In this document: positions 2,603 through 63,820 of the stretch, piece by piece
Layout: each line of letters starts with the position of its first letter
Numbering within the stretch: the stretch's first letter is position 1
Assembly (NCBI GenBank): GCA_964582645.1
Contig: CAZOTB010000007.1
Location: 7,940-71,939 of the forward strand
Length of the DNA: 64,000 nucleotides
From: an uncultured Verrucomicrobiota bacterium
GTDB lineage: Bacteria; Verrucomicrobiota; Verrucomicrobiia; Palsa-1439; CAZOTB01
Direction: 5' to 3'
The notes under the pieces: generated by a model
What the model saw: only the letters and a program-made list of their open reading frames with translations
The model's database searches: none
What the model was told of the DNA's origin: nothing
Program-made: the position numbers and the translations under genes

Positions 2603-2605
2603 AGG

Positions 2606-2694
2606 GTTATCCGCTGTTCGGTATTGGTTCTTTGTGATGGGACGGATATTTCTCACGACCGGCCACTGAGAACCAATGACCGCTAACCGATGAC
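2606..2694. repeat. Heptamer-based palindromic repeat (TTGGTTC.. / ..GAACCAATGACC)
   Basis: Left TCGGTATTGGTTCTTTG and right GAGAACCAATGACCGCTAACCGATGAC are imperfectly complementary 7-bp-period tracts. Similar tracts at 20391-20468 and 63512-63585. Confidence 0.55.
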
Positions 2695-2706
2695 GAACCC
2701 CCGCCC

Positions 2707-3762
2707 ATGAAGAAGAAAAAAATCGCGACATCGTTCTACCGCCAACTCGCCATCTTGCTCGAAGCGGGCTTCCCGTTGATCCGCGCTCTCAACACTCTCG
2801 CGCAACGAAGCAGCAACCGCCGATTCCAGGGCATCCTCCGCAATTTTGTGGCTCAGGTCGAGCGCGGCACCACGTTCTCGGAAGCGCTCAGCCAGGCGTC
2901 CGACTATTTTCCGCCGTTGCAGGTTCAACTCGTCCGCGCGGGCGAAGGCAGCGGCAACCTGACGACCGTGCTCGATCGCCTCGCGGAGGGCGGCATGAAG
3001 GAGATCGCCATCCGCAACCGGCTGCGGACAAGTTTGGTGTACCCCTGCATGATTCTGGTGCTGGCGGTGGTGCTGATTGCGGTTCTCGTGGTGAAGATCG
3101 TTCCCACCTTCGCGCACCTCTTCGAGGAAGTCGGCGCTGCGGTGCCGCCACAGACGCAGTTCCTGATTGAGGTCAGCGATTTTGTTCGCTCGCGCGGATG
3201 GTACATGATTCCGATGGTCGTTGTGGGGCTTGTGCTGGCGTTGCGAGGACTGCTGGCCCTTCGGATCGTGCGGTTGTATCGCGATCACTTGAAACTCCGG
3301 TTCCGCGTTCTCGGTCCGCTCACCCGCGAATACGTCGTTGTTCACACCTGTCGCACGCTCGGGATGCTCTTGCACTCGGGGATTAATCTACTGCGCGCGC
3401 TCGATTTGACCAGCGACGCCTCCTCGAACCTGGTTGTGCAGGAGGGGCTGCGGCAGGCCCGGGAGGAAGTCGAACGGGGTCGTGGCCTCGAAGGGCCGTT
3501 GCGTCGCACCCGCATCCTGCCGCCCGACGTGGTGGACATGGTGGTGACGGCACAGGAAACGGGCGCATTGGCGGAGAACCTGATCTACGCCGCCGACATT
3601 TACGAAGAAGAACTCAACAACCGGATGAGCGTGGTTTCGAGTCTGACCGAACCTGCGCTCGTTCTGGTGGTGGGCTCGGTCGTCTTCTTCGTTGCGATCT
3701 CGTTGTTTCTTCCCTACATCAAGCTCCTCAGCGTGATGGGTGGGTCGCAGCTGGCGGAGTAG
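2707..3762 (+). CDS. gspF: Type II secretion system F family / PilC inner membrane platform protein
   Basis: FYRQLAILLEAGFPL, VRAGEGSGNL, two T2SSF repeats each followed by a TM helix, QETGAL, EPALVLVVG. Confidence 0.93.
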   Translation: MKKKKIATSFYRQLAILLEAGFPLIRALNTLAQRSSNRRFQGILRNFVAQVERGTTFSEALSQASDYFPPLQVQLVRAGEGSGNLTTVLDRLAEGGMKEIAIRNRLRTSLVYPCMILVLAVVLIAVLVVKIVPTFAHLFEEVGAAVPPQTQFLIEVSDFVRSRGWYMIPMVVVGLVLALRGLLALRIVRLYRDHLKLRFRVLGPLTREYVVVHTCRTLGMLLHSGINLLRALDLTSDASSNLVVQEGLRQAREEVERGRGLEGPLRRTRILPPDVVDMVVTAQETGALAENLIYAADIYEEELNNRMSVVSSLTEPALVLVVGSVVFFVAISLFLPYIKLLSVMGGSQLAE

Positions 3763-3804
3763 TACGGATCTCCCGACTGCCTGCGGAGATTCGCACGGGA
3801 CTAC
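3759..3804. repeat. Degenerate GTAG-type REP-like hairpin overlapping the gspF stop codon
   Basis: GTAGT...ATCTCC...GGAGAT...ACTAC pairing. The TAG of the GTAG tetranucleotide is the gspF stop. Confidence 0.35.
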
Positions 3805-3841
3805 GAGTCGTTCTCCGTTTCGAACGGAGGTTCGTCCGAAT

Positions 3842-3990
3842 CTGCTGGATGTTGATCGCATCGTCGAAATCGAGGGATGCCTGCCGCTCGGCCAGTTGCG
3901 TGCAGCTGACTCTGTCCGCTTCCCGCAGCAGCGTGTCTTAATCGCGCAGGAAGAACACTCGGCGCAGTTGGGGAAACGAAGCGTCCGAGG
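3842..3990 (-). pseudogene. Fragment of an AMP-binding acyl-CoA synthetase
   Basis: Minus strand reads LRFP / LRRVFFLRD* / ..TQLAERQASLDFDDAINIQ across frameshifts. This resembles the segment just before the YTSGTTG motif, but the motif itself is absent. Confidence 0.4.
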
Positions 3991-4041
3991 CGGAGGCCAC
4001 TCCGTCCATTCGCGCTTGTAGCGCACGGGGAATGTCATACC

Positions 4042-6093
4042 ATGTCGCGCGCAGCCATGAACGACCCCGTCACCTACACCGTTGATTCCGAGGGCATCGG
4101 CTGGATCACGTTTGACGATCCGAACGCCAAGGCGAACGTCTTCAACCCGCACACCGTCGCCGGATTCCAGAAGGTTTTCAATGCTCTCGGAGGAGAGACC
4201 ACACTCAAGGCCGTTGTCATTCAGAGCGGCAAGGAGAATGTATTCATCGCCGGCGCCGACATCCGGCTCATCGAGACGATTGATTCAGCGGAAAAAGCGC
4301 TCGAACTGGTGCGCGAAGGACACAAGTTTATGGCGATGATCGCCAGCTTCAAAGTGCCCGTCATCGCCGCGATCCACGGCGCGTGCGCCGGGGGCGGTTG
4401 CGAGATGGCGCTCGCGTGCCACTACCGGATCGCCAGCGACAGTCCGAAGACGCAGATCGGCTTGCCCGAGGTTCAACTCGGCATCATCCCCGGATGGGGC
4501 GGTTGCGTGCGACTGCCCCGGCTCGTCGGTCTGCGAATCGCACTCGATTACATTCTCAAGGGCGACCTCAAACCCGCCGGGCTCGCGAGGAAGCATGGTT
4601 TGATGGACGAGGTCGTGCCGGAGGCGATTCTCAAAGAGTGCGCCCGGAAGTGGGCATGGAAGCTGGCGAAAGACGGTAAGCCGCAGCCGCCGTCTCATCT
4701 CGAAAACACCTGGCCGATGCGCGCCATCATTTGCTCCCAGGCGCGAAAGATGACGCTGGCCCGGACGCGCGGCAACTATCCTTCGCCGCTGAAGGCGATT
4801 GACGCCGTCGAGCAGGGGCTTGGACTTTCGATCGAGCAAGCCTGCGAGAACGAAGCGAAACGATTCTGCGAGGTGGCGCTCACTCCCGAGAGCAAGAACC
4901 TGATTCGCGTCTTCTTCCTGCGCGAGGAGAACCGGAAACTCACCGTGGATGGCTGGTTTCCCGGCGTAGCCGCAAGCGTGAGCGAGCGGCCACTCGCTGA
5001 CGCTCGCGGCTACATCCGTCGCGTCGGCGTCATCGGTGCCGGCGTGATGGGTTCCGGCATTGCGCATTGGTGCAGCACGCGGGGGTTCGACGTCCGCATC
5101 CGCGACGTGAAACCGGAGTTTGTCGCAAAGGGAATGCAAAGCATCAACAAGCTGTATCAGGAGAGCGTCCAGCGGCGAAAGCTCACCGCGCGCGAAGCCC
5201 AGCAAGGCATGGCGCGTGTGACGGCGACGACTGATTGGAGTGGATTCGCGAACTGCGATTTGATCATCGAGGCCGTGATCGAAGACATGAAGATCAAGAA
5301 ACCTGTCTTCGAGGAACTCTCACGGCTGGTGCGTCCCGACGCGATTCTCGCCACCAACACCTCCGCCATCCCGATCAACGAGATTGCATCGTGCGCCACG
5401 CATCCCGAGCGCGTCATCGGCATTCACTTCTTTAATCCCGTCAGCCGCATGCCGCTGGTGGAACTGATCCTCGGGCCGCAGACCGGTCGCGCTGCGGCGG
5501 AAATCTCGCTCTCGTTCGTGAAGACGCTCGGTAAACAAATTGTCATCTGCAAGGACTCCCCCGGCTTTCTCGTCAACCGCATCCTGCTGCCGTATCTGAA
5601 CACTGCCGGCCATTTGTTGATGGAAGGCAGCGACGTGCGGACGATTGACGACGCGCTGCTCGATTTCGGCATGCCGATGGGGCCGCTGCGGTTGATTGAC
5701 GAGGTGGGCGTGGATGTGAGCGATCACGTCGCGACCGAGCTGGCGCATTACTTCGGCGAGCGGATGAAGGTGGCCGACGTGCTCGTGAAGATGAACGAAG
5801 CGGGCTTGAAAGGTCGCAAGGGCGGCGCGGGATTCTACGTGTACGAAGGGAAGAAGGAGCGGGTGAACCCCGACCTCGGCAAGTACCTACCCGGCGGCGC
5901 GTCGCGTTCGCTCCCGAAGCAGGCCATCACCGACCGGCTGCTGGGCGTGATGATTGAGGAAGCGAAGCTGTGTCTCAAAGAAGGCGTTGTCCGCAGTGCC
6001 GACGAGGTGGACCTCGGCATGATCATGGGCACCGGTTTCCCGCCGTTTCGCGGTGGGCTGATGCGGTACGCACAGAGCATCGGCAAGGCGTGA
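4042..6093 (+). CDS. fadJ: Fatty acid oxidation complex alpha subunit (enoyl-CoA hydratase / 3-hydroxyacyl-CoA dehydrogenase)
   Basis: AIHGACAGGGCEMALAC, GLPEVQLGIIPGWGG, Rossmann GVIGAGVMGSGIA, HFFNP, PGFLVNRIL. Confidence 0.92.
   Translation: MSRAAMNDPVTYTVDSEGIGWITFDDPNAKANVFNPHTVAGFQKVFNALGGETTLKAVVIQSGKENVFIAGADIRLIETIDSAEKALELVREGHKFMAMIASFKVPVIAAIHGACAGGGCEMALACHYRIASDSPKTQIGLPEVQLGIIPGWGGCVRLPRLVGLRIALDYILKGDLKPAGLARKHGLMDEVVPEAILKECARKWAWKLAKDGKPQPPSHLENTWPMRAIICSQARKMTLARTRGNYPSPLKAIDAVEQGLGLSIEQACENEAKRFCEVALTPESKNLIRVFFLREENRKLTVDGWFPGVAASVSERPLADARGYIRRVGVIGAGVMGSGIAHWCSTRGFDVRIRDVKPEFVAKGMQSINKLYQESVQRRKLTAREAQQGMARVTATTDWSGFANCDLIIEAVIEDMKIKKPVFEELSRLVRPDAILATNTSAIPINEIASCATHPERVIGIHFFNPVSRMPLVELILGPQTGRAAAEISLSFVKTLGKQIVICKDSPGFLVNRILLPYLNTAGHLLMEGSDVRTIDDALLDFGMPMGPLRLIDEVGVDVSDHVATELAHYFGERMKVADVLVKMNEAGLKGRKGGAGFYVYEGKKERVNPDLGKYLPGGASRSLPKQAITDRLLGVMIEEAKLCLKEGVVRSADEVDLGMIMGTGFPPFRGGLMRYAQSIGKA
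4966..5013. repeat. In-frame REPIN-like palindrome, family B (GTAGCCGC..AGCGAG / CTCGCT..GCGGCTAC), inside fadJ
   Basis: 48 bp = 16 codons (VAASVSERPLADARGY). 21-bp arms with 2 mismatches. Arms are near-identical to the element at 19264-19333. Confidence 0.85.
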
Positions 6094-10039: not shown

Positions 10040-11482
10040 TCAATTCGGCATCGTGACGTTGAGGAACGTCGTCGCGCCCTGGCGCACCTCGACGAGTTGG
10101 CCGCGCGGATCGAACGTCAGCAACACCTCGCCCGGCTGATCGGGGTCGTTGTCGAACTCGATCTCGCCCTCCTCCTCGCCGGCGACCAGTTGCACGGTGA
10201 TTGTGCCGCGCACGATTCCGCCCACGAGCAATTCATAGTCGCCGACCGGCAAGTCCTCAATCTCCACGCGAAAATCTCGGTCGCAATCGGTCTCCTGACG
10301 AAACCGCGCCTTCCCTTTCGCATCGCCGTCTGCTCCGGTGTTCGTGAATGAAGGCTCCACATCCATGACGTCACAGGTGCCGCCCGAAGGCGTGCCGAGA
10401 TTCGTCGAGAGGAAGACAGTGGTGGCCTGTTTGACCTCGATCATCTGGCCCGCGGGGTCGAAGTCGAGAGGCAGATCGTTCGGATCATCCGGGTGCGTGG
10501 TGAATTCGACTTCCCCCTCTACGCTCATGTCGAACTGGACGGCGACGTGGATGGTGCCGCGCAACACGCCGCCCACGTAGAGGTCGTAGCTGCCGATCGG
10601 CAGGTCTTCGACCTCCACACGGAAATCGCGACGACAGTCGTCGCGAGTGCGAAGACGCGCGTCGCCCGAGGCGTCGGGGTCGGGGCCGACGTTGGTGAAC
10701 GCGGTCGTGGTTTCGCTCGGCGAACAAACGTTGACGCCCGGTGCGGAGGCGAGCAGTGTACCGGTGAGGATGATGTCGTTGTTCTGAGCCACCTGGATCA
10801 ATTTGCCAAACGGATCGAAGGTCAGCGGCAGTTTGCCGGGGTCGCTCGTGGAGAATTCGATCTGCCCCTCGCCGGCAACCACGTTGATCGTCCCGCGCAG
10901 AACGCCATCCACCAGCAAGTCGTAAGAGCCATCGGATACATCCTCGATCTCGACCTCGAAATCCTGCCTGCCTGCCTTGGTCTTCAGCTCCGCGTGACCG
11001 CTGGCGCCGGGCTGGATGCCGGTCGCGGTGAGGTTGACTCGTTCGCTGGCGACGACATTGGTTGGGTTGCCGCTTCCGTCGTCGTTGCTGCAAATCGAAT
11101 TGTCGCTGGCGTCTCTGACCTCGATCACCTCGCCGCGTGGATCAAAATCGAGCAGCTTGCTCTTACCGGAAGCAGAACCGTTCTGAAATTGCACGGTGGC
11201 GGAACCATTGGGGCTGGTCGTGAATGTGGTGCGTTCGACGCCGCCGACCATCAATCGCAATTCGCTGCTACCGGGCCCGCCTTTGATTTGCAGTTTCATG
11301 CGGGCGGTGCCGCGCGTGCTTTTGAAGTCCACCAGGCCGGTGGCGTCGTCGTCGCCGCTCCCATGCGACAACGTCATCCGCACCTTCGAGTTCTCCGGCA
11401 CCGAGCGGGCCATCGAGACCGCGGGCGCGATAAGGAGCGCCGTCGCCATCCAGACCAATCCGAGTTTCCATTGCTGATTCAT
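10040..11482 (-). CDS. Secreted protein with four tandem ~100-115 aa beta-rich repeats, function unknown
   Basis: GGAGG RBS, then signal peptide MNQQWKLGLVWMATALLIAPAVSMA. Repeat consensus A.G.A...DF.VEIEDL..G.Y.L.VGG..RGTI.V..G..EF...L.FDP.G..IEV. Confidence 0.8.
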   Translation of the reverse strand: MNQQWKLGLVWMATALLIAPAVSMARSVPENSKVRMTLSHGSGDDDATGLVDFKSTRGTARMKLQIKGGPGSSELRLMVGGVERTTFTTSPNGSATVQFQNGSASGKSKLLDFDPRGEVIEVRDASDNSICSNDDGSGNPTNVVASERVNLTATGIQPGASGHAELKTKAGRQDFEVEIEDVSDGSYDLLVDGVLRGTINVVAGEGQIEFSTSDPGKLPLTFDPFGKLIQVAQNNDIILTGTLLASAPGVNVCSPSETTTAFTNVGPDPDASGDARLRTRDDCRRDFRVEVEDLPIGSYDLYVGGVLRGTIHVAVQFDMSVEGEVEFTTHPDDPNDLPLDFDPAGQMIEVKQATTVFLSTNLGTPSGGTCDVMDVEPSFTNTGADGDAKGKARFRQETDCDRDFRVEIEDLPVGDYELLVGGIVRGTITVQLVAGEEEGEIEFDNDPDQPGEVLLTFDPRGQLVEVRQGATTFLNVTMPN

Positions 11483-12231: not shown

Positions 12232-12958
12232 TCAACAAGCCAGAGACATCCTGCTCGCCTACCGTGCCGGCACGTCGGACGCGAACAATCCCAGCGTGGC
12301 CCAAGCGCTCGACCTGGCCCGGCGCGATCCGGAGCTGGCCCATTGGCTTGAAGAACAGAATGCGCTGTACCGCAGCATCCGGGCGAAACTGAAGGCCGGG
12401 CGCGCGCCGGACGATCTCAGAGAGCGAATCCTCGCGAGTCGAAAGATTGTCCGAGTCGCGTTCTGGCGACGCAACCCGGTCTGGCTGGCTGCGGCGGCGA
12501 TCTTTGTCCTGTTGATCGGTGCCGCGATGATGCTGCTGAACGTGCGTTCCGCGTCCGACTTCAACTCCTACCGGAGCGAGATGGTCCGGTTCGTGGCGCA
12601 GGGCTACAAGATGGATGTGGAGGTCGAGAGTTTCGCGGCGCTGCAACGCGTGTTCAAGGAGAAGCATTGGCCATTCGAGTACGAGGTGCCGAAACCGCTC
12701 CAAGCAGTGCCGCTCGAAGGCGGTTGCGCCCACACATGGCGGGGCCATCGGGTCAGCCTGCTGTGTTTCGAGACGACGGACCACAAAGATATCTGGCTCT
12801 TCGTCGTCGAGCGGGCAGCGGTGCCTCATCCGCTCGCGACCGGCTCGATTGCATTCGACAACGTGGGAGGACTGCCCACCGCCGCGTGGGTCATGGGCAG
12901 CAAACTCTACCTGCTGACAGGCGAAGTGGACGCCGAGACGCTCAAACGGCTGCTGTGA
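12224..12958 (+). CDS. Putative membrane-anchored anti-sigma factor
   Basis: GTG overlaps the sigma stop, with GGAG RBS. Short cytoplasmic N-terminus, single TM (WLAAAAIFVLLIGAAMMLL), then a C-terminal domain. Confidence 0.7.
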   Translation: MDSQQARDILLAYRAGTSDANNPSVAQALDLARRDPELAHWLEEQNALYRSIRAKLKAGRAPDDLRERILASRKIVRVAFWRRNPVWLAAAAIFVLLIGAAMMLLNVRSASDFNSYRSEMVRFVAQGYKMDVEVESFAALQRVFKEKHWPFEYEVPKPLQAVPLEGGCAHTWRGHRVSLLCFETTDHKDIWLFVVERAAVPHPLATGSIAFDNVGGLPTAAWVMGSKLYLLTGEVDAETLKRLL

Positions 12959-15334: not shown

Positions 15335-17155
15335 TCAGTACTTCCCGTACAACGGCCCGAAGTTGGCGCACGCGCGGAAATCGGCGCCCTGCGGTTCGTT
15401 CGCGCCGAACTCCGTCCACGCGCTCGGACGGAAGATGCGCTCCTCCTCGATGTTGTGCATATAGACGGGAATGCGGAGCATCGCGGCGAGCGTGATCAAC
15501 TCGTGTCCGATGTGCCCGGCGCTGAACGCGCAATGGTTCGCGCCCCAGTTGTTCATCACCGTGTACACGTCGCGGAACGGTCCGCTACCGGTCACGCGTG
15601 GAACGAACCAAGTGGTCGGCCACGTCGGGTTGGTGCGACGATCGAGCACGTCGTGCACGGCATCGGGTAGCTCGACCGTGACACCCTCGGCGATCTGCAA
15701 CGCGGGGCCGAGTCCCTTGATGATGTTGATGCGCGCCGCGGTAATCGGCATGCCGCCGCGGGTGCGGAACCGCGTCGAGAACCCGCCGCCGCGGAAGTAT
15801 TCGAGCACGGCAGGACACCACTCGGTGGCGTTCAGGCACGCGGCCGCCTCGCTCGGCTTGATCTGCCACCACGGTTTCATCGTGGGTTGGCCGTCCGCTT
15901 CCTGCCTGCCGGTGCCGTCGAGCGCGGCGGGACCGCTGTTGATCAAATGCAAGATGCCGCCCGCGGCTTCGCCTTCGAGATCGTGGCCGGTGACTCCTTT
16001 TACCGCGTCGGGACTCCAGTAGGTGCGCACGTCGGCGAACACCTGCGCGCCGCCGGTGAGCAGGTGACCGAAGAGCATCGTCGCGCCATTGAGCGCGTCG
16101 TTCTCGGTGGCGACGATGTACGGCTGCCGAATGCCGTTCCAGTCGAACGACGTGCACAGGATCGCTTCGAGGAAATCGCCGTTCGGGTAATGGTCGGTCC
16201 ACTGGCGCTGCCCCTGGAATCCGCCGGCGATGGAGTTGTGCCCCAGCGCTTCCTCACCGAAGCCGAGCGCCTTGAGCCGGGGATTCCCGATCATCAAGTC
16301 GCGCGCGATCATCGCTGTCTTGACGCAGAACTCCAACTCCGCGTCCTTCTGCTTGCGCGAGCGACGCCTGCCAGGCTTGTTCGGGTCGAAGCCTTCCCGG
16401 CAATTCGCCCGCACCCACCTCAGCGCTGCGGCAAATTCCTTCGGATCGTAAATGCCGCGTGTGATGCGACGAGTGAACTCCGTCATGTCCACGTTCATCA
16501 CGCGCATGCCCAAGTACGCCTCGAAGAATGCCGGGTCCACGACCGAGCCGGCGATGCCCATCGAGGTGCCGCCCATGGCGCAGTACGATTTGCCGCGCAT
16601 GGTCGCCACGGCGATGCCCGCCCGGGCGAACTGCAGCAGCTTCTCCTGCACGTCCTCGGGGATCGTCTGGTCGCCGAGCGGTTTTACGTCGCGACCGTAG
16701 ATGTTGAAAACAGGGTAGCCCTTCTGGTTGTGACCCGCGGACACCGCGGCGAGATAGACCGCGCCGGGACGCTCGGTGCCGTTGAAGCCCCAGACGGCTT
16801 TGGGCACAAGCGGGTCCATGTCCATCGTCTCCGAGCCGTAACACCAACACGGCGTGACGGTGATCGAGACGCCGACGCCCTCCCGGGCAAACTTCTCCGC
16901 GCAGGCCGACGCCTCCGCGATGCCGCCGATACAACGATCGGCGATCACGCACTCGACCTTGGTGCCGTCGGCATGACGCAGCTTCTGGCTGAGCAACCGC
17001 GCGGTATTACGCGCCATGCCCATGACGGCCCCTTCGAGCGATTCGCGGACGCCGCCGAGTCGGGCGTCAATCGTGGGGCGAATGCCAATTTTCGGGTTTG
17101 CGCCCACAAGACGATTGCGGGGCGCGTTGACTTTGAATTCTGATTTGATTGCCAT
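15335..17155 (-). CDS. fucI: L-fucose isomerase
   Basis: [66 protein letters not shown]. Confidence 0.95.
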
Positions 17156-19333: not shown

Positions 19334-22300
19334 CCGCCTTCTCCCGCGCGAAGCCACCGTTGAACTGCCGACGCTCGGGCTTGGGCATCGCGGTGTCGGC
19401 TTTGACGAACACCGTCTCCTCGCCGAGTAACGCCTCGATTTCGCGGATGAACTCCGCGGTGGGCGCGATGCAGAAATGCTGGTTCGTGTCGAGGAACACC
19501 AGCTCGCCGCTCGGGTACTCGATCACCAGGAGCACCGGCGTTCGTCCGCCATGCTTTTCGAGGACGGCACTCAACTCCTGCAACGTTGCCTCGGTTGTGT
19601 GCGCGGCCTGGAGGCGGACGTGGACCTGTTTGGTCTGCCGCACGCGCACTTCCTGGATCGGCAGGATTTCCTGTGCGGCGATCTTGGGCTTTTCATCGCG
19701 CGAATTCATGCTGCCGCACACGTACACGGCGGCGTCGGTCTGGAGATGCTTGCCGTACTTGGCGTAACAATCCGGGAAGGCCACGACCTCGATCGAGCCT
19801 TCCATGTCTTCCAGAATGAACGAGGCCATCGGCTTCTGCTCGGCCTTGGTGACTGTGTTCCGTAAGGCGGTGACAATCCCGCCCGCACGGACCATCTGCC
19901 GGTCGGTCAGTTCGAGCGCCTTCGAGGTGGGCGTGAGTTCGTAGCGTTCGAGGATGTCGCCATGCTGCGCCAACGGATGGCCGGTGACGTAGAATCCAAG
20001 CAGTTCTTTCTCGAACGCCAGCCGCTGGCTCGCCGGCCACTCGGGCACGTGGGGGGCCTTCGATGGCGGCGGCGCGGGTTCGGAGTCGAATGCGCCGAAC
20101 AACGACACCTGTCCGCGTGCTTTGTCCTGTTGCACGCTGGCCGCGCGGCCGAGCACGTGATCAATGGTCGCGGCCATTTGAGCGCGCGATTGCCCGAGCG
20201 AGTCGAACGCACCGCACTTGATGAGGCATTCCACGACTTTCCGGTTGCAGAGTCGCGTATCCACCCGCTCGGCGAAATCATACAGCGTCTTGAACCGCCC
20301 GGCCTTTGCGCGCGCATCGAGGATGGATTGCACGGCCATCTCGCCCACGCCTTTGATGGCGGCGAGGCCGAAGCGGATGGCGCGGAGCGCGTTATTAGTT
20401 GTTGGTAATTGGTTATGGGTCGAATTGGTCGTCGAGTCACCAGTGACCAATGACTGATTACCAGTAACTGCCGTTTCAACCGTGAATCGGATGCCGCTCG
20501 TGTTCACGTCCGGCGGCAGCACTTCAAGCCCCATCGCACGAGATTCGCGGATGAACAACGCGAGCTTGTCGGTGTTGCTCAGATCGTTCGACATCAACGC
20601 GGCCATGAACTCCACCGGATAATTCGCCTTGAGATAGGCGGTCTGATACGCAACGACCGCGTAGGCGGCAGCGTGCGATTTGTTGAATCCGTACCCGGCA
20701 AACTTTTCGAGCAGATCGAAGATCGCGTTGGCTTTCTCCCTGGGGATCTTGTTCTTCTCCCAGCAGCCCTTGAGGAACGTCTCCCGTTGCTTGGCCATCT
20801 CCTCGACCTTCTTTTTGCCCATCGCGCGACGCAGCAGGTCTGCTCCGCCGAGCGTGTAGCCCGCAAGCGCCTGGGCGGCCTGCATGACCTGCTCCTGGTA
20901 GATCATGATGCCGTAGGTCTCACGACAGATCGATTCGAGAAGCGGATGCTCGTACTCGATCTTTTTCCGACCGTGGCGCCGCTCGATGTAGTCGGGAATC
21001 AGGTCGATCGGCCCGGGACGGTAGAGCGCGATCAACGCGATGATGTGTTCGAGGCTGCTGATCTGGAATTTCCGGCACAGGTCGCGCATGCCACCGGACT
21101 CAAGCTGGAACAGGCCGATCGTGTTTGCCTTGTTGAGCAGGTCGTACGTCGGCGCGTCGTCGAGCGGAAGATTGTGGATGTCCACGTCCACGCCCTGCGT
21201 TTGCTTGACCAATTTGACCGTCTCGTCAATCACGGTGAACGTCTTCAACCCGAGGAAGTCCATCTTCAACAGGCCGAGGTCGCCGACCGGGTTCATCGCG
21301 TATTGCGTGACCAGGCCGCCGTTTTCATCCTTCTGGAGCGGGAGCAGTTCCACGAGCGGTTGCGCGCCGATCACGACCCCGGCGGCGTGTGTGCTCGCGT
21401 TGCGCGAGATGTCCTCGAGCACGAACGCGGTGTCAATCAGGTCCGTGACGGTCTGGTTGCTCCGGTATTCCTTCTGGAGCTCGGGGACCTGCTCGAGCGC
21501 CTTGTGGAGTGTGATCTTGGGATCGTTGGGAATCATCTTGGCGAGCCGGTCGGCCTCGCTGAAGCTCAGACCCATCACGCGCGCCACGTCGCGCACCACG
21601 GCTTTTGGCCCGAGCGTACCAAAGGTGATGATTTGCGCGACATTCGCTTCGCCATATTTCTTGCGCACGTACTCGATGACTTCGCCGCGTCGGTCGTCGG
21701 CAAGGTCAATGTCAATGTCGGGCGGGCTGATGCGTTCGGGATTCAGGAATCGCTCGAAGAGCAGGCCATACCGGAGCGGGTCCACAACGGAGATTTCCAG
21801 CAGATACGTCACGAGCGAGCCCGCTGCCGAGCCACGGCAACCCACCGCGATGCCGTTGCGTTTGGCGAAGCTGACGAAATCGGCGACGATCAGGAAGTAA
21901 CTGACGAACCCTTGTTTCTCGATGACTCTAAGTTCGTGCTCCATCTGCTCGACGACCTTGCGCTGGGACTCCGGGAGCGTTGATTTCCAATCAGCTATAT
22001 CAGCCAGCGTTGGGCCCAGACGAGCAGGGCAATGAGCGTGGGAGGCCGACTCCGTCGGGCGACCATGAGTTTCAGTTGTCTGATCGAGGTCGCCCGACGG
22101 AGTCGGCCTCCCACAGTCCCGGCCTGGCGTGGTACGATCCAAAATGCCTTCGGTCTCGATGCCATATCGCTTCTTGAGGCCGATGAGACACTGATGAATC
22201 AAGTAGCCTTCGCGCGAGAACCCGGTGGGCGGATCGAAGACGGGAAAACGCAGTTTCCCGAACTCGAGATTGAGGCTGCATTTCTCCGCGATGGCGATGG

Positions 22301-35659: not shown

Positions 35660-36265
35660 ATGCCGTGGTTCAAGAAAAAGCGGAGTCCGATTGACCAGCG
35701 GATCGAGGAGTTGAACCAAGAACTCGCCTCGCTCGAAGCAGAGCAGCGCCGGCAGGCTGAGGAGACCGAGCGTCGCAAAGCCGCTGCGAGCGCGGCCACA
35801 CCCGCGCCTGGCCAGGAGAACGGTCAGGAGCAACCGGGCGAGCGCCCGGCTTTGCCGTTTCGGGAGACCCGCAAGCCGCGGATCCGCACCACGGTCAATC
35901 CCGGCGGCACGGCGTCGGTGCACGGTATCGAACCGCACGAGTTTGACTTTTTCGCCCGCCGCGACAGGCCCGTGGACTTCAGCGAGCCCGGGCACGTCGC
36001 GGGCGCGAAACCGAAGGACGACAAGAAGCCCGTGGGCCCGCACGGCACTCACGCAGGGCCGGGTCTGTGGGAGGCGTTGCTGAGTCTGTTCAACGCCCCG
36101 AAGCCCCGCCAGGAGCAGGAGAAGTTCGCGAGCTTCCTGACAACTGGCAGCTTCCAGCGGCTCAAACCGCTCAAGTACGAGCGTCGCATCGCGCGCAACC
36201 GGTTCATCGCCGTTGCGGTCATTGTGCTGGCGATTGCATTTCTGCTGGTCAAATGCATCCGATGA
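35660..36265 (+). CDS. Hypothetical protein: N-terminal coiled coil, low-complexity linker, C-terminal TM
   Basis: IDQRIEELNQELASLEAEQ. Conserved-looking FLTTGSFQRLKPLKYERRIARNRFI, followed by a TM helix. Confidence 0.7.
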   Translation: MPWFKKKRSPIDQRIEELNQELASLEAEQRRQAEETERRKAAASAATPAPGQENGQEQPGERPALPFRETRKPRIRTTVNPGGTASVHGIEPHEFDFFARRDRPVDFSEPGHVAGAKPKDDKKPVGPHGTHAGPGLWEALLSLFNAPKPRQEQEKFASFLTTGSFQRLKPLKYERRIARNRFIAVAVIVLAIAFLLVKCIR

Positions 36266-45715: not shown

Positions 45716-48700
45716 ATGACGATCCGACCGACATTGATCGCGTTGAGCCTACTCGCAATCCTCTGCGCCAGCCTCGATGCGGCCACCCCCATCTCGCAGC
45801 GCGCGATGAGTTTTGCGGTCACGCCTCCGATTCGCGATCTGCCCGCGCACGAAGGAACGAGGAGCAACTTCATTGTCCCGCTCGGTGTGCCCGGCATCTC
45901 GGCGCCCAGCGCGCAGGAAGTCGTGGCCAGCGCGGTGGCGTTGGCCCAGTCCCCGCACGATCCCGTGGTTCAGAGCACGATGCCCACGCCTCTGACGCCG
46001 GTGCCCAACGTGACTTTTGAGGGATTGAGCTCCAGCGACAACCTGGACGTATTCGGCGGCACCGGTGCGCCTCCCGACACCGTCGGGGACGTCGGACCCG
46101 ACCACTACGTGCAGATGGTGAACACGCTCTTCCGGGTGTTCGACAAGAACACCGGTTTCCCGCTGACACCTCCCACGGCGTTGAGTTCTTTGTATTCGTC
46201 GCTGCCCGGCGCGTGCGCCGACACCGACGATGGCGACCCGATTGTGCTGTACGATCCTCTGGCCGACCGCTGGGTTCTGACTCAGTTCGCGGGTGTGTTC
46301 AGCGGCCCGCCGTTCTTTCAAACCATCGCGGTCTCCCAGACGGGCGATCCGACGGGCGCGTACTTTGTGTATTGCTTCCAGATGCCGAACAGCAAGTTTA
46401 ACGACTACCCGAAATTCGGCGTGTGGCCCGATGCCTACTACATGACCGACAATCAGTTCGCCAGCATCTTTGGCGGGTTCGCCGGCGCGGGTGCGTTTGC
46501 GTTCGACCGCGCCAAGATGCTCGTGGGCGATCCGAGCGCCAGCTTCATCTATTTCGACCTCGAGGATGTGGACCCGAACATCGGGGGAATGCTTCCCTCC
46601 GACCTGGACGGTCCTCCCCCGCCCGACGGCACGCCGAACTACTTCATGTATTTCATCGCCACCGAGCGCGGCGACTCGCTGGATGGGCTGCGGATATTCG
46701 AGTTTGTGCCGAACTTCACCACGCCGGCGTCGTCCACCTTCACGGAACGAGCGGACAGTCCGGTGGCCGTGGCCGCGTTCGACCCTGGTGTGCCCGATGT
46801 GCCGCAGCCGCCGGGTGACGGAACCGCTCTCGATTCCATTCCCGATCGGCTGATGTTCCGGTTGCAGTATCGCAATTTCAGTTCGCACGAGTCGCTGGTC
46901 GTCTGTCACACCGTGGACGCCAACGGCAGCGGCCAGGCTGGTGTACGCTACTATGAACTCCGGCGTCCGCTCCCCGGCGGCGATTTCATCGTCAACGAAC
47001 AGGCCACGTTCGCACCCGACAGCGACGGCCGCTGGATGGGCAGCGCGGCGATGGATGCCTCGGGCAATCTGGCCGTCGGCTACAGCGTCTCGAGCGCCAC
47101 GACGCATCCGGCCATTCGATATGCCGCGCGGCTCGCGACGGATCCGGCGAACGGGTTGTTCCAGGGCGAGGCAATCCTGTTCGAGGGCTCGGGCTCGCAG
47201 ACGGACGGCTTGAACCGCTGGGGCGATTACAGCGCGATGTGCGTTGACCCCGCCGACGATTGCACGTTCTGGTTCACCAGCCAATACATCCCCGAGGACG
47301 GCTCGTTCAACTGGCACACTCGGATCGGCAGTTTCAGCCTCGGCAACTGCGAAGCAGGACCGCGGTTGAGCCTGGCGTTTGACGAAGCGATTGTCTCCGG
47401 TGGCAACGACAACGGATTCGTTGATTCGGGAGAGTGTCTCAATCTCAACATCGTCGCTGGCAACCTGAGCACGAACGAGGTCACCGGCGTCGGCGCCACG
47501 CTGACGACAAGCACTCCCGGCGTCACCATCACCCAGGGAGTGTCGGCCTACGCGGACTTTCCCGCCGAGGGTGTTTCGACCAACCTGACACCGTTCCAGT
47601 TCTGCATCAGCACCAATGTTGCGTGCGGTTCGCAGATCACCTTCTTCCTCACCCTGACCAACGCGATTGGTTCCGCCAGCGTGAACTTCATCCTCGACGT
47701 CGGCATCAGCACCAATGTCGCTGCATTTAACTTCGAGACCGGTCTCCAGGGTGTGACCATCCAGAACGACGGAAACAACCTCTGGCACTTGAGCTCCGGC
47801 CGCGGCGGTCAGCCGGGGCACAGCAAGACCAACTCGATGTATTACGGCCAGGGCGAGACCGGCAGTGGAGGTGGCAATTACAACACCGGCAGCACGAACG
47901 CCCTCGGCTTCGTCGGTTCGCCCAATCGCGGCTCCTTCACGCTGCCACCCCTCAACCTTCTGGGCGTCAACGGCACGGTGCTGATGACTTTCAATCAGTT
48001 CCTCGACCGCGAAACCTCATCACCGAACTACGACATCGCCCGACTGGAAGCGTCCACCGATGGCGGGCAATCGTTCGTGACGGTCGGCGGGCCGTACGCC
48101 TCCACGTCGAAAGTCATCTTGTTCCGCAAGGCGCGCTTCCGCCAGGCCACCGTCAACCTCACCCCGTTCCTCAACAAGGAAGTGATCCTGCGCTTCAGCT
48201 TTGACACCGTGGACAATCAGTCGAATGCGTTCGAAGGCTGGTACGTGGACGACATCGTCATCAAGGCGTTCGCTTGCGCGCTCGATCTGAGCGGCGCAGG
48301 GCAGATTGTATCGCAGGGAACGACCGTCGGCGACAGCACCGGCGTGTTCGCGACCTTCAACGGAATCAACGGTGCGAATCTCCTGACGCAATCGGTGCTG
48401 ACCAACGAACCGCACGGCGACTTCCGATCGTTCGCCGTGGACACCGCAGGCAACGGCATCCAGTCCGTCGCGGTCGCTGCCACGAACAGCGCCGGGCAGG
48501 TCCGTTTCGAGGTGCGCGACGGGAGCACGGGGGCACTGTTGAGTTCGAACGCACTCGCGTTCCTCACCTCGCCGTATCAATCCACCGCCGCCGATGTTTC
48601 GGGCTCCGCAGGCGACGAATTGCTATTTGTTGCGCCCGGTGGTGGAGGCACGGTGTTAAGCGTGGTGGACCCCGCCACCGGCGATGCGACCATGCCGGCC

Positions 48701-62154: not shown

Positions 62155-63510
62155 ATGGCTGGTTTGCTCAAGCCCGAAGTGTTTCGGGATTACTTCACTT
62201 TCCTGAAGTTCCCAAGCGTCTCCACCCAGCCGCAACGGAAACGCGACGTTGCCGCCTGCGCCATCTGGTTGCGGGATCATCTCCGCTCGATCGGGCTCAA
62301 GGCGACGCTGTACCCGACTCGCGGCCACCCCGTCCTCGTCGCCTCGACCAGCCAACGCCCACAACCCCGTCGGCCTGCGCTTCTGATTTACGGCCACTAT
62401 GACGTCCAGCCACCGGAGCCGCTTGAGCTGTGGAAGACACCACCGTTCGAGCCGACGATCCGCAAGGGGCAGGTGTACGCACGGGGCGCCATGGACAACA
62501 AGGGACAGATCTGGTGTCACATCAAGGGGGTTGAATCGCTGCTGCGCGAGCGACGCGAGTTGCCGGTGGATGTGGTGTTCCTCATCGAAGGAGAAGAGGA
62601 AATCGGAAGCCAGAATCTCGCGCCGTTCGTTCGGGCGCACCGCCGCGAACTGCGTGCCGATGGTTGCGTGATTTCCGACTCGAGCATGTTTGGCCCGAAC
62701 CAGCCCGCGATCAGTTACGGCCTGCGCGGGATTGTCTGTCTGGAGCTTCGCGTGTACGGGCCGTCCCACGATCTGCACTCGGGAATGTTTGGTGGCACCT
62801 TGACCAATCCTGCCGTCGCGCTTGCTCGTGTCCTCGGCGAGATGATTGACGCGAAGGGCCGCATTGCCATCCCCGGCTTCTACGACGATGTGCGCCCTCT
62901 CCCGGCATCGGAACGGCGTCAACTGGCACGTCTGCCGTTCCGCGAATCCGCCTATCGCAAGATGCTCGGAGTGCCCGCCCTCGCGGGAGAGTTCGGCTAC
63001 AGCCTCAACGAACGTCGCTGGGCGCGTCCCACGTTCGACATCAATGGCATTTTCGGCGGCTACCAGGGCGAGGGAAGCAAGACGGTCATTCCTTGTTGGG
63101 CGGGCGCGAAGTTCAGTTTGCGACTCGTGCCCGACCAGAAACCCGACCGGGTAATTCGACTGCTGCGTGCGCATCTGAAACGGGTGCTCCCCGGCTCCGT
63201 CCGCTGGAAGTTGATCGCCCACGAATTGGGCGCCGAACCGTATCTCGTCTCTCCGCGCGGTCGTTTCGTGCAGGCGGCCGCCCGCGCCATCGAGAAGGGG
63301 TTCGGTCGCAAACCGTTGTTCATCCGCGAAGGCGGTTCGATTCCCATCGTCACCACGATCAAGAAGGAACTCGGTCTCGACACAATTCTGATCGGCTTGG
63401 GACTGCCCGACGACGGCGCCCATTCCCCCAACGAACACTTCGGTCTGGATCGCCTGCGCAAAGGCATTTTGACCTCGCGTCATCTCCTGATAGAGTTGGC
63501 GAAGAAGTAG
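62155..63510 (+). CDS. M20/M25/M40 family dipeptidase
   Basis: LIYGHYDVQPP, YARGAMDNKGQ, EGEEEIGS, DLHSG, GGSIP, HSPNEHF. Confidence 0.93.
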   Translation: MAGLLKPEVFRDYFTFLKFPSVSTQPQRKRDVAACAIWLRDHLRSIGLKATLYPTRGHPVLVASTSQRPQPRRPALLIYGHYDVQPPEPLELWKTPPFEPTIRKGQVYARGAMDNKGQIWCHIKGVESLLRERRELPVDVVFLIEGEEEIGSQNLAPFVRAHRRELRADGCVISDSSMFGPNQPAISYGLRGIVCLELRVYGPSHDLHSGMFGGTLTNPAVALARVLGEMIDAKGRIAIPGFYDDVRPLPASERRQLARLPFRESAYRKMLGVPALAGEFGYSLNERRWARPTFDINGIFGGYQGEGSKTVIPCWAGAKFSLRLVPDQKPDRVIRLLRAHLKRVLPGSVRWKLIAHELGAEPYLVSPRGRFVQAAARAIEKGFGRKPLFIREGGSIPIVTTIKKELGLDTILIGLGLPDDGAHSPNEHFGLDRLRKGILTSRHLLIELAKK

Positions 63511-63511
63511 G

Positions 63512-63585
63512 GTTTGGTTATTGGTTCTTCGCGAGAGGCTGACGCTGGCTGTGCATCTGCCCCTTGACAACCAATAATCGAGAAC
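63512..63585. repeat. Heptamer palindromic repeat (TTTGGTTATTGGTTCTT / ACAACCAATAATCGAGAAC)
   Basis: Same style as 2606-2694 and 20391-20468; lies right after the dipeptidase stop. Confidence 0.55.
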
Positions 63586-63674
63586 GGGTGGCGCAACGGA
63601 CCTCGCCGCGTGAGCGCGCCGTCGCGTGCCTGCGAAGCAGGCGTCATGGCAGCCGGTTCAATCAACCCTCGGGC

Positions 63675-63820
63675 TCATGCAACCATCTCTGCCCTCGTGC
63701 AAACGTCTCTCCCCGTCGTGCAACCTTCGCTCGGCCTCATGCAAACGCGTCTCCGCGTCCAGCAATGAACGCTCGGTGTCGTGCGAAGGCGACTCCGGCT
63801 CGTGCGAACATCCTCCCATA
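63675..63820. repeat. About 7 degenerate 21-bp tandem repeats (TCRTGC-anchored)
   Basis: Unit starts at 63675, 63695, 63716, 63737, 63758, 63779 and 63800. The first unit is 20 bp. Confidence 0.8.

Follow-up and report, generated by a model that had tools for sequence, protein, structure and literature searches.

In the present study, we describe translated repeat DNA in dnaE, the gene for the alpha subunit of DNA polymerase III, on a 64,000-nucleotide stretch of contig CAZOTB010000007.1 (assembly GCA_964582645.1) from an uncultured Verrucomicrobiota bacterium; this whole stretch is referred to as the window. Shortly before the helix-hairpin-helix (HhH) motif of the polymerase, the gene holds an AT-rich insert of 26 codons, VTGNQSLVTGDSTTNSTHNQLPTTNN, which consists of two inverted tracts of degenerate heptamers and resembles hairpins located between genes of the same window. 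The insert is probably repeat DNA that was shaped at the level of the nucleic acid and is tolerated in a permissive loop of the protein, a loop that would serve hairpin repeats as a landing site throughout the phylum.

Read in the dnaE frame, the reverse complement of 20391-20468 encodes this peptide, flanked by GIRFTVETA on one side and by ALRA-IRFGLAAIKGVGE on the other (ALRA being the four codons at 20379-20390), and the coordinates and the peptide in a preliminary description of this DNA were exact. The GC content of the insert, about 0.47-0.50, is about 0.13 lower than the window mean of 0.62. The self-match at lag 7 was 0.54, compared with 0.26 for shuffled sequence, and in none of 2000 shuffles was this value reached at any lag from 1 to 14; lag 14 came second in the autocorrelation, and lag 3 was unremarkable despite the coding character of the stretch. 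When each arm was taken alone, the lag-7 self-match was 0.61 on the left and 0.54 on the right. With a threshold of 15/21 lag-7 matches, no period-7 tract was detected anywhere in the 64 kb except the two insert arms, at 20391-20420 and 20433-20462, and runs of at least three tandem ACYRNTN units were observed in the window only in the right arm and at 2672. The left arm, which is the nearer to the family consensus discussed below, codes for the C-terminal half of the loop (THNQLPTTNN), and the right arm codes for the N-terminal half (VTGNQSLVTG). The two sides are 76% complementary over 25 nt, consistent with the inverted heptamer tracts proposed earlier. Tandem Repeats Finder, run over the whole window, returned no array at 20391-20468 even at score 30, because the heptamer units are degenerate, and the periodicity was demonstrated by autocorrelation instead. 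Within the insert, a 21-nt direct duplication, GTTACTGGT...GTCACTGGT, codes for VTGNQSL and VTGDSTT. The hairpin folds with -12 kcal/mol as DNA (z -1.7) and with -19.3 kcal/mol as mRNA (z -1.95). A flanking direct repeat (20370-20383/20484-20497, 86% identical) was considered as a target-site duplication and rejected, because it codes for the IRF of two beta-strands, a protein feature that is also present in relatives. No match was obtained with Rfam at gathering thresholds anywhere in the window. A promoter and terminator scan of the dnaE region gave results at chance level, and a terminator-like site at 20376-20396 was set aside as antisense to dnaE.

The host gene encodes a C-family polymerase, as the PHP, DNA_pol3_alpha, finger, HHH_6 and OB domains (PF02811, PF07733, PF17657, PF14579 and PF01336) were found by Pfam in 120 DnaE homologues, which are full-length and share up to 81% identity with the window protein. 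The window DnaE also matched the Pol III alpha chains 2hpi, 3e0d and 5fku in the PDB with E about 1e-38 to 1e-41. The flanks of the insert align to residues 814-882 and 887-980 of Taq Pol III alpha and to residues 757-825 and 831-926 of the E. coli protein, and the solved structures of both have a turn of 4-5 residues in the place of 33 residues in the window DnaE. The structural mapping that had been suggested earlier places the insert at the tip of a beta-hairpin. An AlphaFold model of DnaE residues 550-1010 (mean pLDDT, the predicted local distance difference test score, 56) was used for the local strand-coil-strand pattern alone; it contains a strand (FTVE, fragment residues 325-328), a coil of 25 residues and a second strand (AIRF), followed by confident HhH helices, and between the two strands the pLDDT of fragment residues 330-354 is below 50. 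The insert is therefore predicted to form a disordered, solvent-exposed loop at the hairpin tip before the HhH motif.

The relationship of the insert to intergenic hairpins of the same genome is supported by several comparisons. Two such hairpins in the window, hereafter the 2606 and 63512 elements, have ATTGGT and ACCAAT cores and heptamer-phased flanks, e.g. ACCAATG ACCGCTA ACCGATG in the former. The 12-mer GTNATTGGTTNT was observed, with at most one mismatch, 8 times in the window compared with 1.36 expected, and 6 of the 8 occurrences are within the dnaE insert and the two intergenic elements; the left arm contains GTAATTGGTTAT, an exact match, and no exact match was detected in 85 other loci (1.48 Mb). 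The motif ATTGGT, followed by ACCAAT 20-70 nt on, occurs at 4 places in the window, compared with 0.09 expected from shuffles, and at 6 places in the 1.48 Mb of control loci. One of these window pairs, at 47666/47711, which falls within a gene for a repeat protein and is not flanked by heptamers, was judged to be due to chance. A hidden Markov model (HMM) built from the four intergenic arms, with the dnaE arms excluded, placed the right arm at the top of the non-training matches and the left arm in third place. The strongest link is independent of the window. In L086, the nearest sampled relative (PilB 85% identical), the orthologous pilB-pilC spacer holds a hairpin at 10946-11038 that represents a clean version of the element, (TATTGGG)2TATTGGT...(AACCAAT)2AACCAAC. 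When this element was used as a query against the window, the dnaE loop was the best match (22/27 and 19/21 identity, E 0.012), followed by the 2606 element and then by the 63512 element, and the match to the left arm includes the non-periodic start ATTAGTT. The dnaE insert thus has the shared core, an inverted partner 30-50 nt away and the heptamer-phased flanks of a TATTGGN heptamer-hairpin family, and these sequence comparisons support the view, held in the preliminary description, that the insert and both intergenic hairpins belong to one family, albeit a loose one.

Beyond the window, (TATTGGN)3 was present in at least 120 metagenome contigs with GC contents from 0.33 to 0.64, and among the matches listed an inverted partner accompanied about 15 of 125 arrays. 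In L144, from an unrelated metagenome (contig GC 0.61), a (TATTGGN)4...(ATATCCA)3 hairpin at 4789-4815 is in frame (...LDIGYWVLEDTAQYPISNIQ...) on the minus strand in an open reading frame (3767-5254) for a radical SAM enzyme with a B12-binding-type N-terminus. The pilB-pilC spacer differs among organisms: in L087 (2598-2710) it contains a different heptamer tract, (AACGCAT)n, and a GC-rich hairpin, and in an organism of 75% identity (contig P0123) it is just 26 nt long. A degenerate array of period 21/42 (TCGTGCAAnnnnCTCnnCC..., 70-80% matches), apparently non-coding, was also observed at 63674-63797 of the window, ~100 nt downstream of the 63512 element.

The heptamer arms seem to have been gained in the lineage of the window. 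Between PDVNxS and IRFG, these motifs included, the window DnaE has a segment of 39 aa, compared with 21 aa in the homologue P0001 (81% identity), 16 aa in P0002 (74% identity) and 10-16 aa in most other phyla, confirming the claim of extra residues with respect to the nearest relatives as well as the solved structures. The short loops of P0001, whose DNA is in L001, and of P0002 have no heptamers, and the L001 loop is free of TATTGG-type units. The L086 contig comes from a metagenome sample shared with L001, and the two are probably from one organism. Because the nearest DnaE relatives are without the arms, though L086 has the family in its pilB-pilC spacer, the arms were gained on the branch of the window. 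The family consensus, ACC AAT AAC CAA TAA, would give an in-frame TAA stop codon in dnaE; the dnaE copy has TTA at this position, a difference suggesting selection for an open frame only. A heptamer tract of other sequence (CTCAACT CTCAGCG CTCAACC CTCAGCT) was noted at 13882-13916 of L001, ~270 nt downstream of the dnaE stop codon of this closest relative.

The loop before the HhH motif is a hypervariable site throughout the phylum. In the 120 nearest DnaE homologues, all of which are verrucomicrobial, the PDVNxS-to-IRFG segment ranges from 12 to 59 aa (median 35); it is 16 aa or shorter in just 5 and long in about 115, and the loop sequences are unrelated between groups of homologues. The earlier statement that DnaE usually has a short turn here is accordingly correct for bacteria in general and incorrect for this clade. 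In the homologue alignment the loop is unconserved at the protein level, in line with the repeat reading put forward at the outset. Where DNA was available for fold statistics, the expanded loops usually form hairpins, and they fold more strongly than other segments of dnaE (median z -2.0 vs -0.74, Mann-Whitney p 4e-6). Near-perfect palindromes of 20-30 bp make up several loops, and GTAG...CTAC ends are frequent among them (L005, L022, L028, L051 and L073); the loop peptides of other lineages are translated palindromes of the repetitive extragenic palindromic (REP) type. In L002, an arm of the dnaE loop (12710-12733) matches an intergenic palindrome 3.3 kb away (16040-16138), with 100% identity to each of its two arms (24 and 22 nt).

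A second site in dnaE, at about aa 330-370, is likewise occupied by repeats in several verrucomicrobial genomes. In the window, this site (hereafter site 1) carries a perfect GC-rich palindrome, which is translated in frame as ...GRDCGRPTPSGDL...HGRPTESASH... and whose mRNA hairpin reaches -72.7 kcal/mol (z -11.5); a second, different repeat class in the same gene, as proposed earlier, is thereby confirmed. No other full copy of the palindrome was found in the window, and a partial match of 19 nt is located at 36057-36075. In L003 (11017-11095 and 12590-12718) and L005 (11065-11091 and 12590-12685), where site 1 is at about aa 340-365, a REP arm of 27-28 nt is 100% identical at both dnaE sites, and a further copy of that arm is located just past the dnaE stop codon of L003 (13771-13795). 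The identity of these arms suggests recent insertion or gene conversion between the sites. Heptamers are also observed at site 1: in L016 (4150-4240), inverted tracts (GTTCCGA)4...(TCGGAAC)3-4 are in frame, and in L002 (11021-11139) there are two tandem arrays, (AGTCCAG)n and (ACGCAAC)n. Verrucomicrobial loci in general have an excess of period-7 tracts (n=28 at lag 7, n=7 at lag 8 and n=1 at lag 9 in 1.55 Mb). In four Chthoniobacterales genomes, an inverted heptamer-tract hairpin occupies the same position upstream of an ald-like gene (MI[IV]GVPKEIK...), ending a few bases short of its ATG; the sequences of these hairpins differ and their architecture is kept, and the element may be cis-regulatory. 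The positions of all these features are collected in the table.

Table. Location and composition of the dnaE insert, its surroundings and the related or compared hairpins (window coordinates unless a locus is named)
Feature	Position	Strand	Detail and basis
dnaE, DNA polymerase III alpha subunit, 1257 aa	19329..23102	(-)	Open reading frame and translation, Pfam domains of homologues, PDB matches
AT-rich insert of period 7; 78 nt (26 codons), VTGNQSLVTGDSTTNSTHNQLPTTNN	20391..20468	(-)	Reverse complement translated in the dnaE frame
GIRFTVETA, outgoing beta-strand of the hairpin bearing the insert at its tip	20469..20495	(-)	Aligned up to Taq 882, E. coli 825
IRFGLAAIKGVGE, returning beta-strand and start of the HhH	20340..20378	(-)	Aligned from Taq 887, E. 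coli 831
Left arm, + strand heptamers GTTATTA GTTGTTG GTAATTG GTTATGG GTCGAAT	20391..20425	(.)	Lag-7 self-match; identity to L086 spacer
Right arm, + strand heptamers ACCAGTG ACCAATG ACTGATT ACCAGTA ACTGCCG	20439..20473	(.)	Lag-7 self-match; ACYRNTN runs; HMM
Imperfect inverted repeat, arms 20397-20421 and 20445-20469, 23-nt spacer	20397..20469	(.)	25 nt, 76% complementary
Site 1 loop, about aa 330-355; perfect 27-bp inverted repeat of GTGGGAGGCCGACTCCGTCGGGCGACC, 23-nt spacer, GTGG-tagged, REP-like, GC-rich	22038..22114	(-)	Fold
2606 element, between pilB/gspE (863-2602) and pilC/gspF (2707-3762)	2603..2700	(.)	Arms GGTATTGGTTCT, AGAACCAATGACC
63512 element, adjoining the stop codon at the 3' end of an M20 peptidase gene (62155-63510)	63511..63585	(.)	Arms GGTTTGGTTATTGGTTCT, CAACCAATAATCGAGAAC
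ald-upstream heptamer hairpins, units GTGATCA and CACTGGT	L021 20165-20245; L027 19890-19995; L028 19897-19990; L051 17690-17775		

Herein, we propose that the 78 nt have been shaped at the nucleic-acid level and not by selection on the peptide. The insert would be a degenerate hairpin element of two inverted heptamer tracts, with a unit of about TYAYYGG (CCRRTRA on the other strand), a member of the loose TATTGGN-type family that is also seen as intergenic hairpins of this genome and of its nearest sampled relative. Since the tip is predicted to be floppy and solvent-exposed, it could tolerate some 18-28 additional polar residues (T, N, S, Q and G), and selection might merely have kept the reading frame open; we infer that the peptide itself has no function. 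The pre-HhH tip and the loop at about aa 330-370 would both be recurrent landing sites in Verrucomicrobiota, where lineage-specific hairpin repeats may be replaced, or homogenised against the repeat families of each genome. Two routes of arrival can be inferred: a single-stranded hairpin might be transposed or converted into the gene at the replication fork, as has been proposed for REPs and their REP-associated tyrosine transposases (RAYTs), or heptamer slippage might build one arm and template switching the second.

Several observations weigh against this proposal. The identity between the dnaE arms and the intergenic arms is low (about 64% over the 25-nt arms), the HMM E-values are individually weak (the best match has an E of 1.5 alone), and a window self-BLAST of the loop (blastn-short) gave no significant off-site match. 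The 2606 element has no second copy of at least 80% identity in either source metagenome run and is therefore not a member of a typical high-copy, high-identity mobile family; the genome portion examined is 64 kb, with three related places in it. The hairpin of the insert is weak, with z about -1.7 to -3.2 across folds, the AlphaFold fragment is poor as a whole (mean pLDDT 56), and neither a terminal tag nor a target-site duplication nor a transposase was seen at the dnaE insert. The centre of the insert, GDSTTNS, can be aligned to GESATQS of the relative (14/21 nt), which is not significant given the many offsets; this core may be homologous to the loop of the relative, and in that case the arms would have been added around an older core and not inserted as one piece. 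The earlier claim that a repeat has entered the polymerase implies transposition, for which neither a target-site duplication nor, in the case of the 2606 element, a second metagenome copy with at least 80% identity was found. The main alternative is a local origin, in which a short ancestral loop lengthened through replication slippage and small duplications, one arm was copied into the other by template switching at a hairpin, and there is no relation to dispersed elements; the likeness to the intergenic hairpins would then reflect a mutational bias to heptamer repeats common to the lineage. The 21-nt direct duplication, the possibly homologous core, the missing target-site duplication and high-identity copy, and the general excess of period-7 tracts in verrucomicrobial loci are consistent with such growth, and among the long simple repeats of prokaryotes heptanucleotides are reported to be the most frequent (Mrazek 2007, cited in PMC4679880). 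However, one arm is 81-90% identical to the L086 spacer element over 21-27 nt with the non-periodic ATTAGTT included, an exact 12-mer common to both intergenic hairpins is missing from 1.48 Mb of other loci, and three places within 64 kb have the heptamer unit and the inverted architecture in common. A purely local origin is thus the less likely of the two.

The hairpin bias of the loops might also be read as function. A hairpin could be kept in the dnaE mRNA or DNA, here and at site 1 across Verrucomicrobiota, as a translational pause aiding domain folding, as an element of mRNA stability or as the binding site of a heptamer-reading protein, with pairing conserved while the sequence turns over. 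The long loop in about 115 of 120 homologues, the hairpin bias of the loops relative to the rest of dnaE and the folding of many unrelated loop sequences speak for such a role. Heptamer hairpins also occupy conserved positions before start codons, at ald (L021, L027, L028 and L051) and at pilC (window and L086), a placement in agreement with the role in translation that has been suggested for TAACTGA repeats (PMC4679880). Nevertheless, the hairpin of the window itself is weak (z about -2), P0001, P0002 and 5 of the 120 homologues manage without a long loop, and the L002 loop arms, being identical to intergenic repeats, speak for gene conversion or selfish spread and not for a dnaE-specific function; we regard a functional hairpin as unlikely. 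A related and only slightly less improbable idea is that two fixed positions of verrucomicrobial dnaE are kept occupied by hairpins, either as a useful structure or as a homing target refilled by the repeats of each genome. If so, the structure might cause a pause during translation, contribute to mRNA stability or form a regulated roadblock, REP-type and heptamer-type sequences would turn over while pairing persists phylum-wide, and the window hairpin would be one state of this process. A benefit of the peptide is very improbable. As a flexible arm close to the HhH and the clamp-binding region, the loop could contact DNA, the beta clamp or a replisome partner, since it directly precedes the HhH motif of the beta-binding domain and long loops are the rule in the clade; against this, neither sequence nor length is conserved even among proteins of 74-81% identity, the composition is polar and of low complexity, period 7 overrides period 3 in the DNA, model confidence is low over the loop, and the loop peptides of other lineages are translations of REP palindromes. 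An artefact of assembly or sequencing might be suspected from a break of Logan unitigs near 20350-20376, but two independent freshwater metagenome runs gave Logan contigs that equal the window over 20350-20916, without differences or gaps and at genome-like depth, and the reading frame is intact. The insert is genuine sequence, and an artefactual origin can practically be dismissed.

Comparison with known systems places the dnaE insert beside intragenic REPs. Intragenic REPs tagged with GTAG or CGTC have been described in several genes, including those for DnaE of Rickettsia conorii and for DnaE2 of other species, and uvrA, and many are present in the verrucomicrobium Opitutus terrae (Di Nocera et al. 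2013, PMC3733652, where Rickettsia palindromic elements, RPEs, are also mentioned). As in these cases, the dnaE insert is a hairpin repeat akin to intergenic copies and translated in frame within a replication gene, two inserts per gene are possible, the phylum is shared with Opitutus terrae, and many homologue loops at the same dnaE site are GTAG...CTAC palindromes. The insert is also a short imperfect palindrome that can fold into a stem-loop. It differs from REPs in being AT-rich in a GC-rich genome, in having heptamer tracts and not a stem of 6-13 bp, and in the copies found, i.e. three related places in 64 kb and none of high identity. Its ends are GTTATTAG and CCAGTAAC, without GTAG or CGTC, in contrast to the GTAG...CTAC ends in the L005, L022, L028 and L051 loops and the GTGG tag at site 1 of the window. 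No RAYT gene turned up in the 64-kb window, whose open reading frames were not screened with PF01797. The combination of terminal inverted repeats with a target-site duplication, expected of a miniature inverted-repeat transposable element, was not found at the insert. RPEs, which Ogata and colleagues reportedly found in 2000 in frame in conserved protein genes, are a functional analogy, being selfish palindromic DNA at surface sites that tolerate extra residues; the dnaE insert is similarly in frame, missing from the orthologues of close relatives and at an insertion-tolerant site. RPEs differ in their length of 100-150 bp, their mutual recognisability, their restriction to Rickettsia and their lack of a heptamer substructure. 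By analogy, the dnaE insert appears to behave like an RPE or an intragenic REP.

Heptamers of other organisms offer a partial parallel. The short tandemly repeated repetitive (STRR) sequences of cyanobacteria, described by Mazel and colleagues in 1990, reportedly have the units CCCCAGT (STRR1), TTGGTCA (STRR2) and CAACAGT (STRR3). The resemblance to STRR sequences, raised in the preliminary description, holds for the unit only: the insert has a 7-nt period, and both the right dnaE arm and the 2606 element contain TCATTGG, a cyclic permutation of the reported STRR2 unit. TTGGTCA itself occurs once in the insert, within CATTGGTCACTGG on the coding strand, and most units differ from it. Whereas STRR sequences form tandem arrays in heterocystous cyanobacteria, the insert has no head-to-tail array of near-identical units; its units are 54-61% self-similar and form two degenerate inverted tracts around a spacer, and the host is a verrucomicrobium. 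Direct repeats of the heptamer TAACTGA occur in Beggiatoaceae, Cyanobacteria and Bacteroidetes, mostly upstream of start codons and rarely inside open reading frames (MacGregor 2015, PMC4679880). Similar to the elements described here, they are mostly intergenic and often end just before a start codon, and within open reading frames only a stop-free orientation and frame survives. They differ in the unit, TAACTGA and not TATTGGN, and in being direct repeats, with one indirect repeat reported, where the inverted hairpin is the rule here.

Thus, the in-frame heptamer hairpin in dnaE is a further case of a partly known habit, the lodging of hairpin repeats in replication genes. If the explanation proposed here is correct, the catalytic subunit of the replisome can harmlessly carry translated repeat DNA at defined surface loops, and in Verrucomicrobiota the loop directly before the DNA-binding HhH motif would have been refilled many times with unrelated hairpin repeats. 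Inverted heptamer-tract hairpins would then represent a repeat architecture of their own, present in verrucomicrobia and, for TATTGGN, in many other metagenomic organisms, located between genes, often just before a start codon, and occasionally within conserved genes. Such loops would also call for caution, as they inflate alignments and mimic lineage-specific insertions or domain novelties, yet would arise from events at the level of the DNA.

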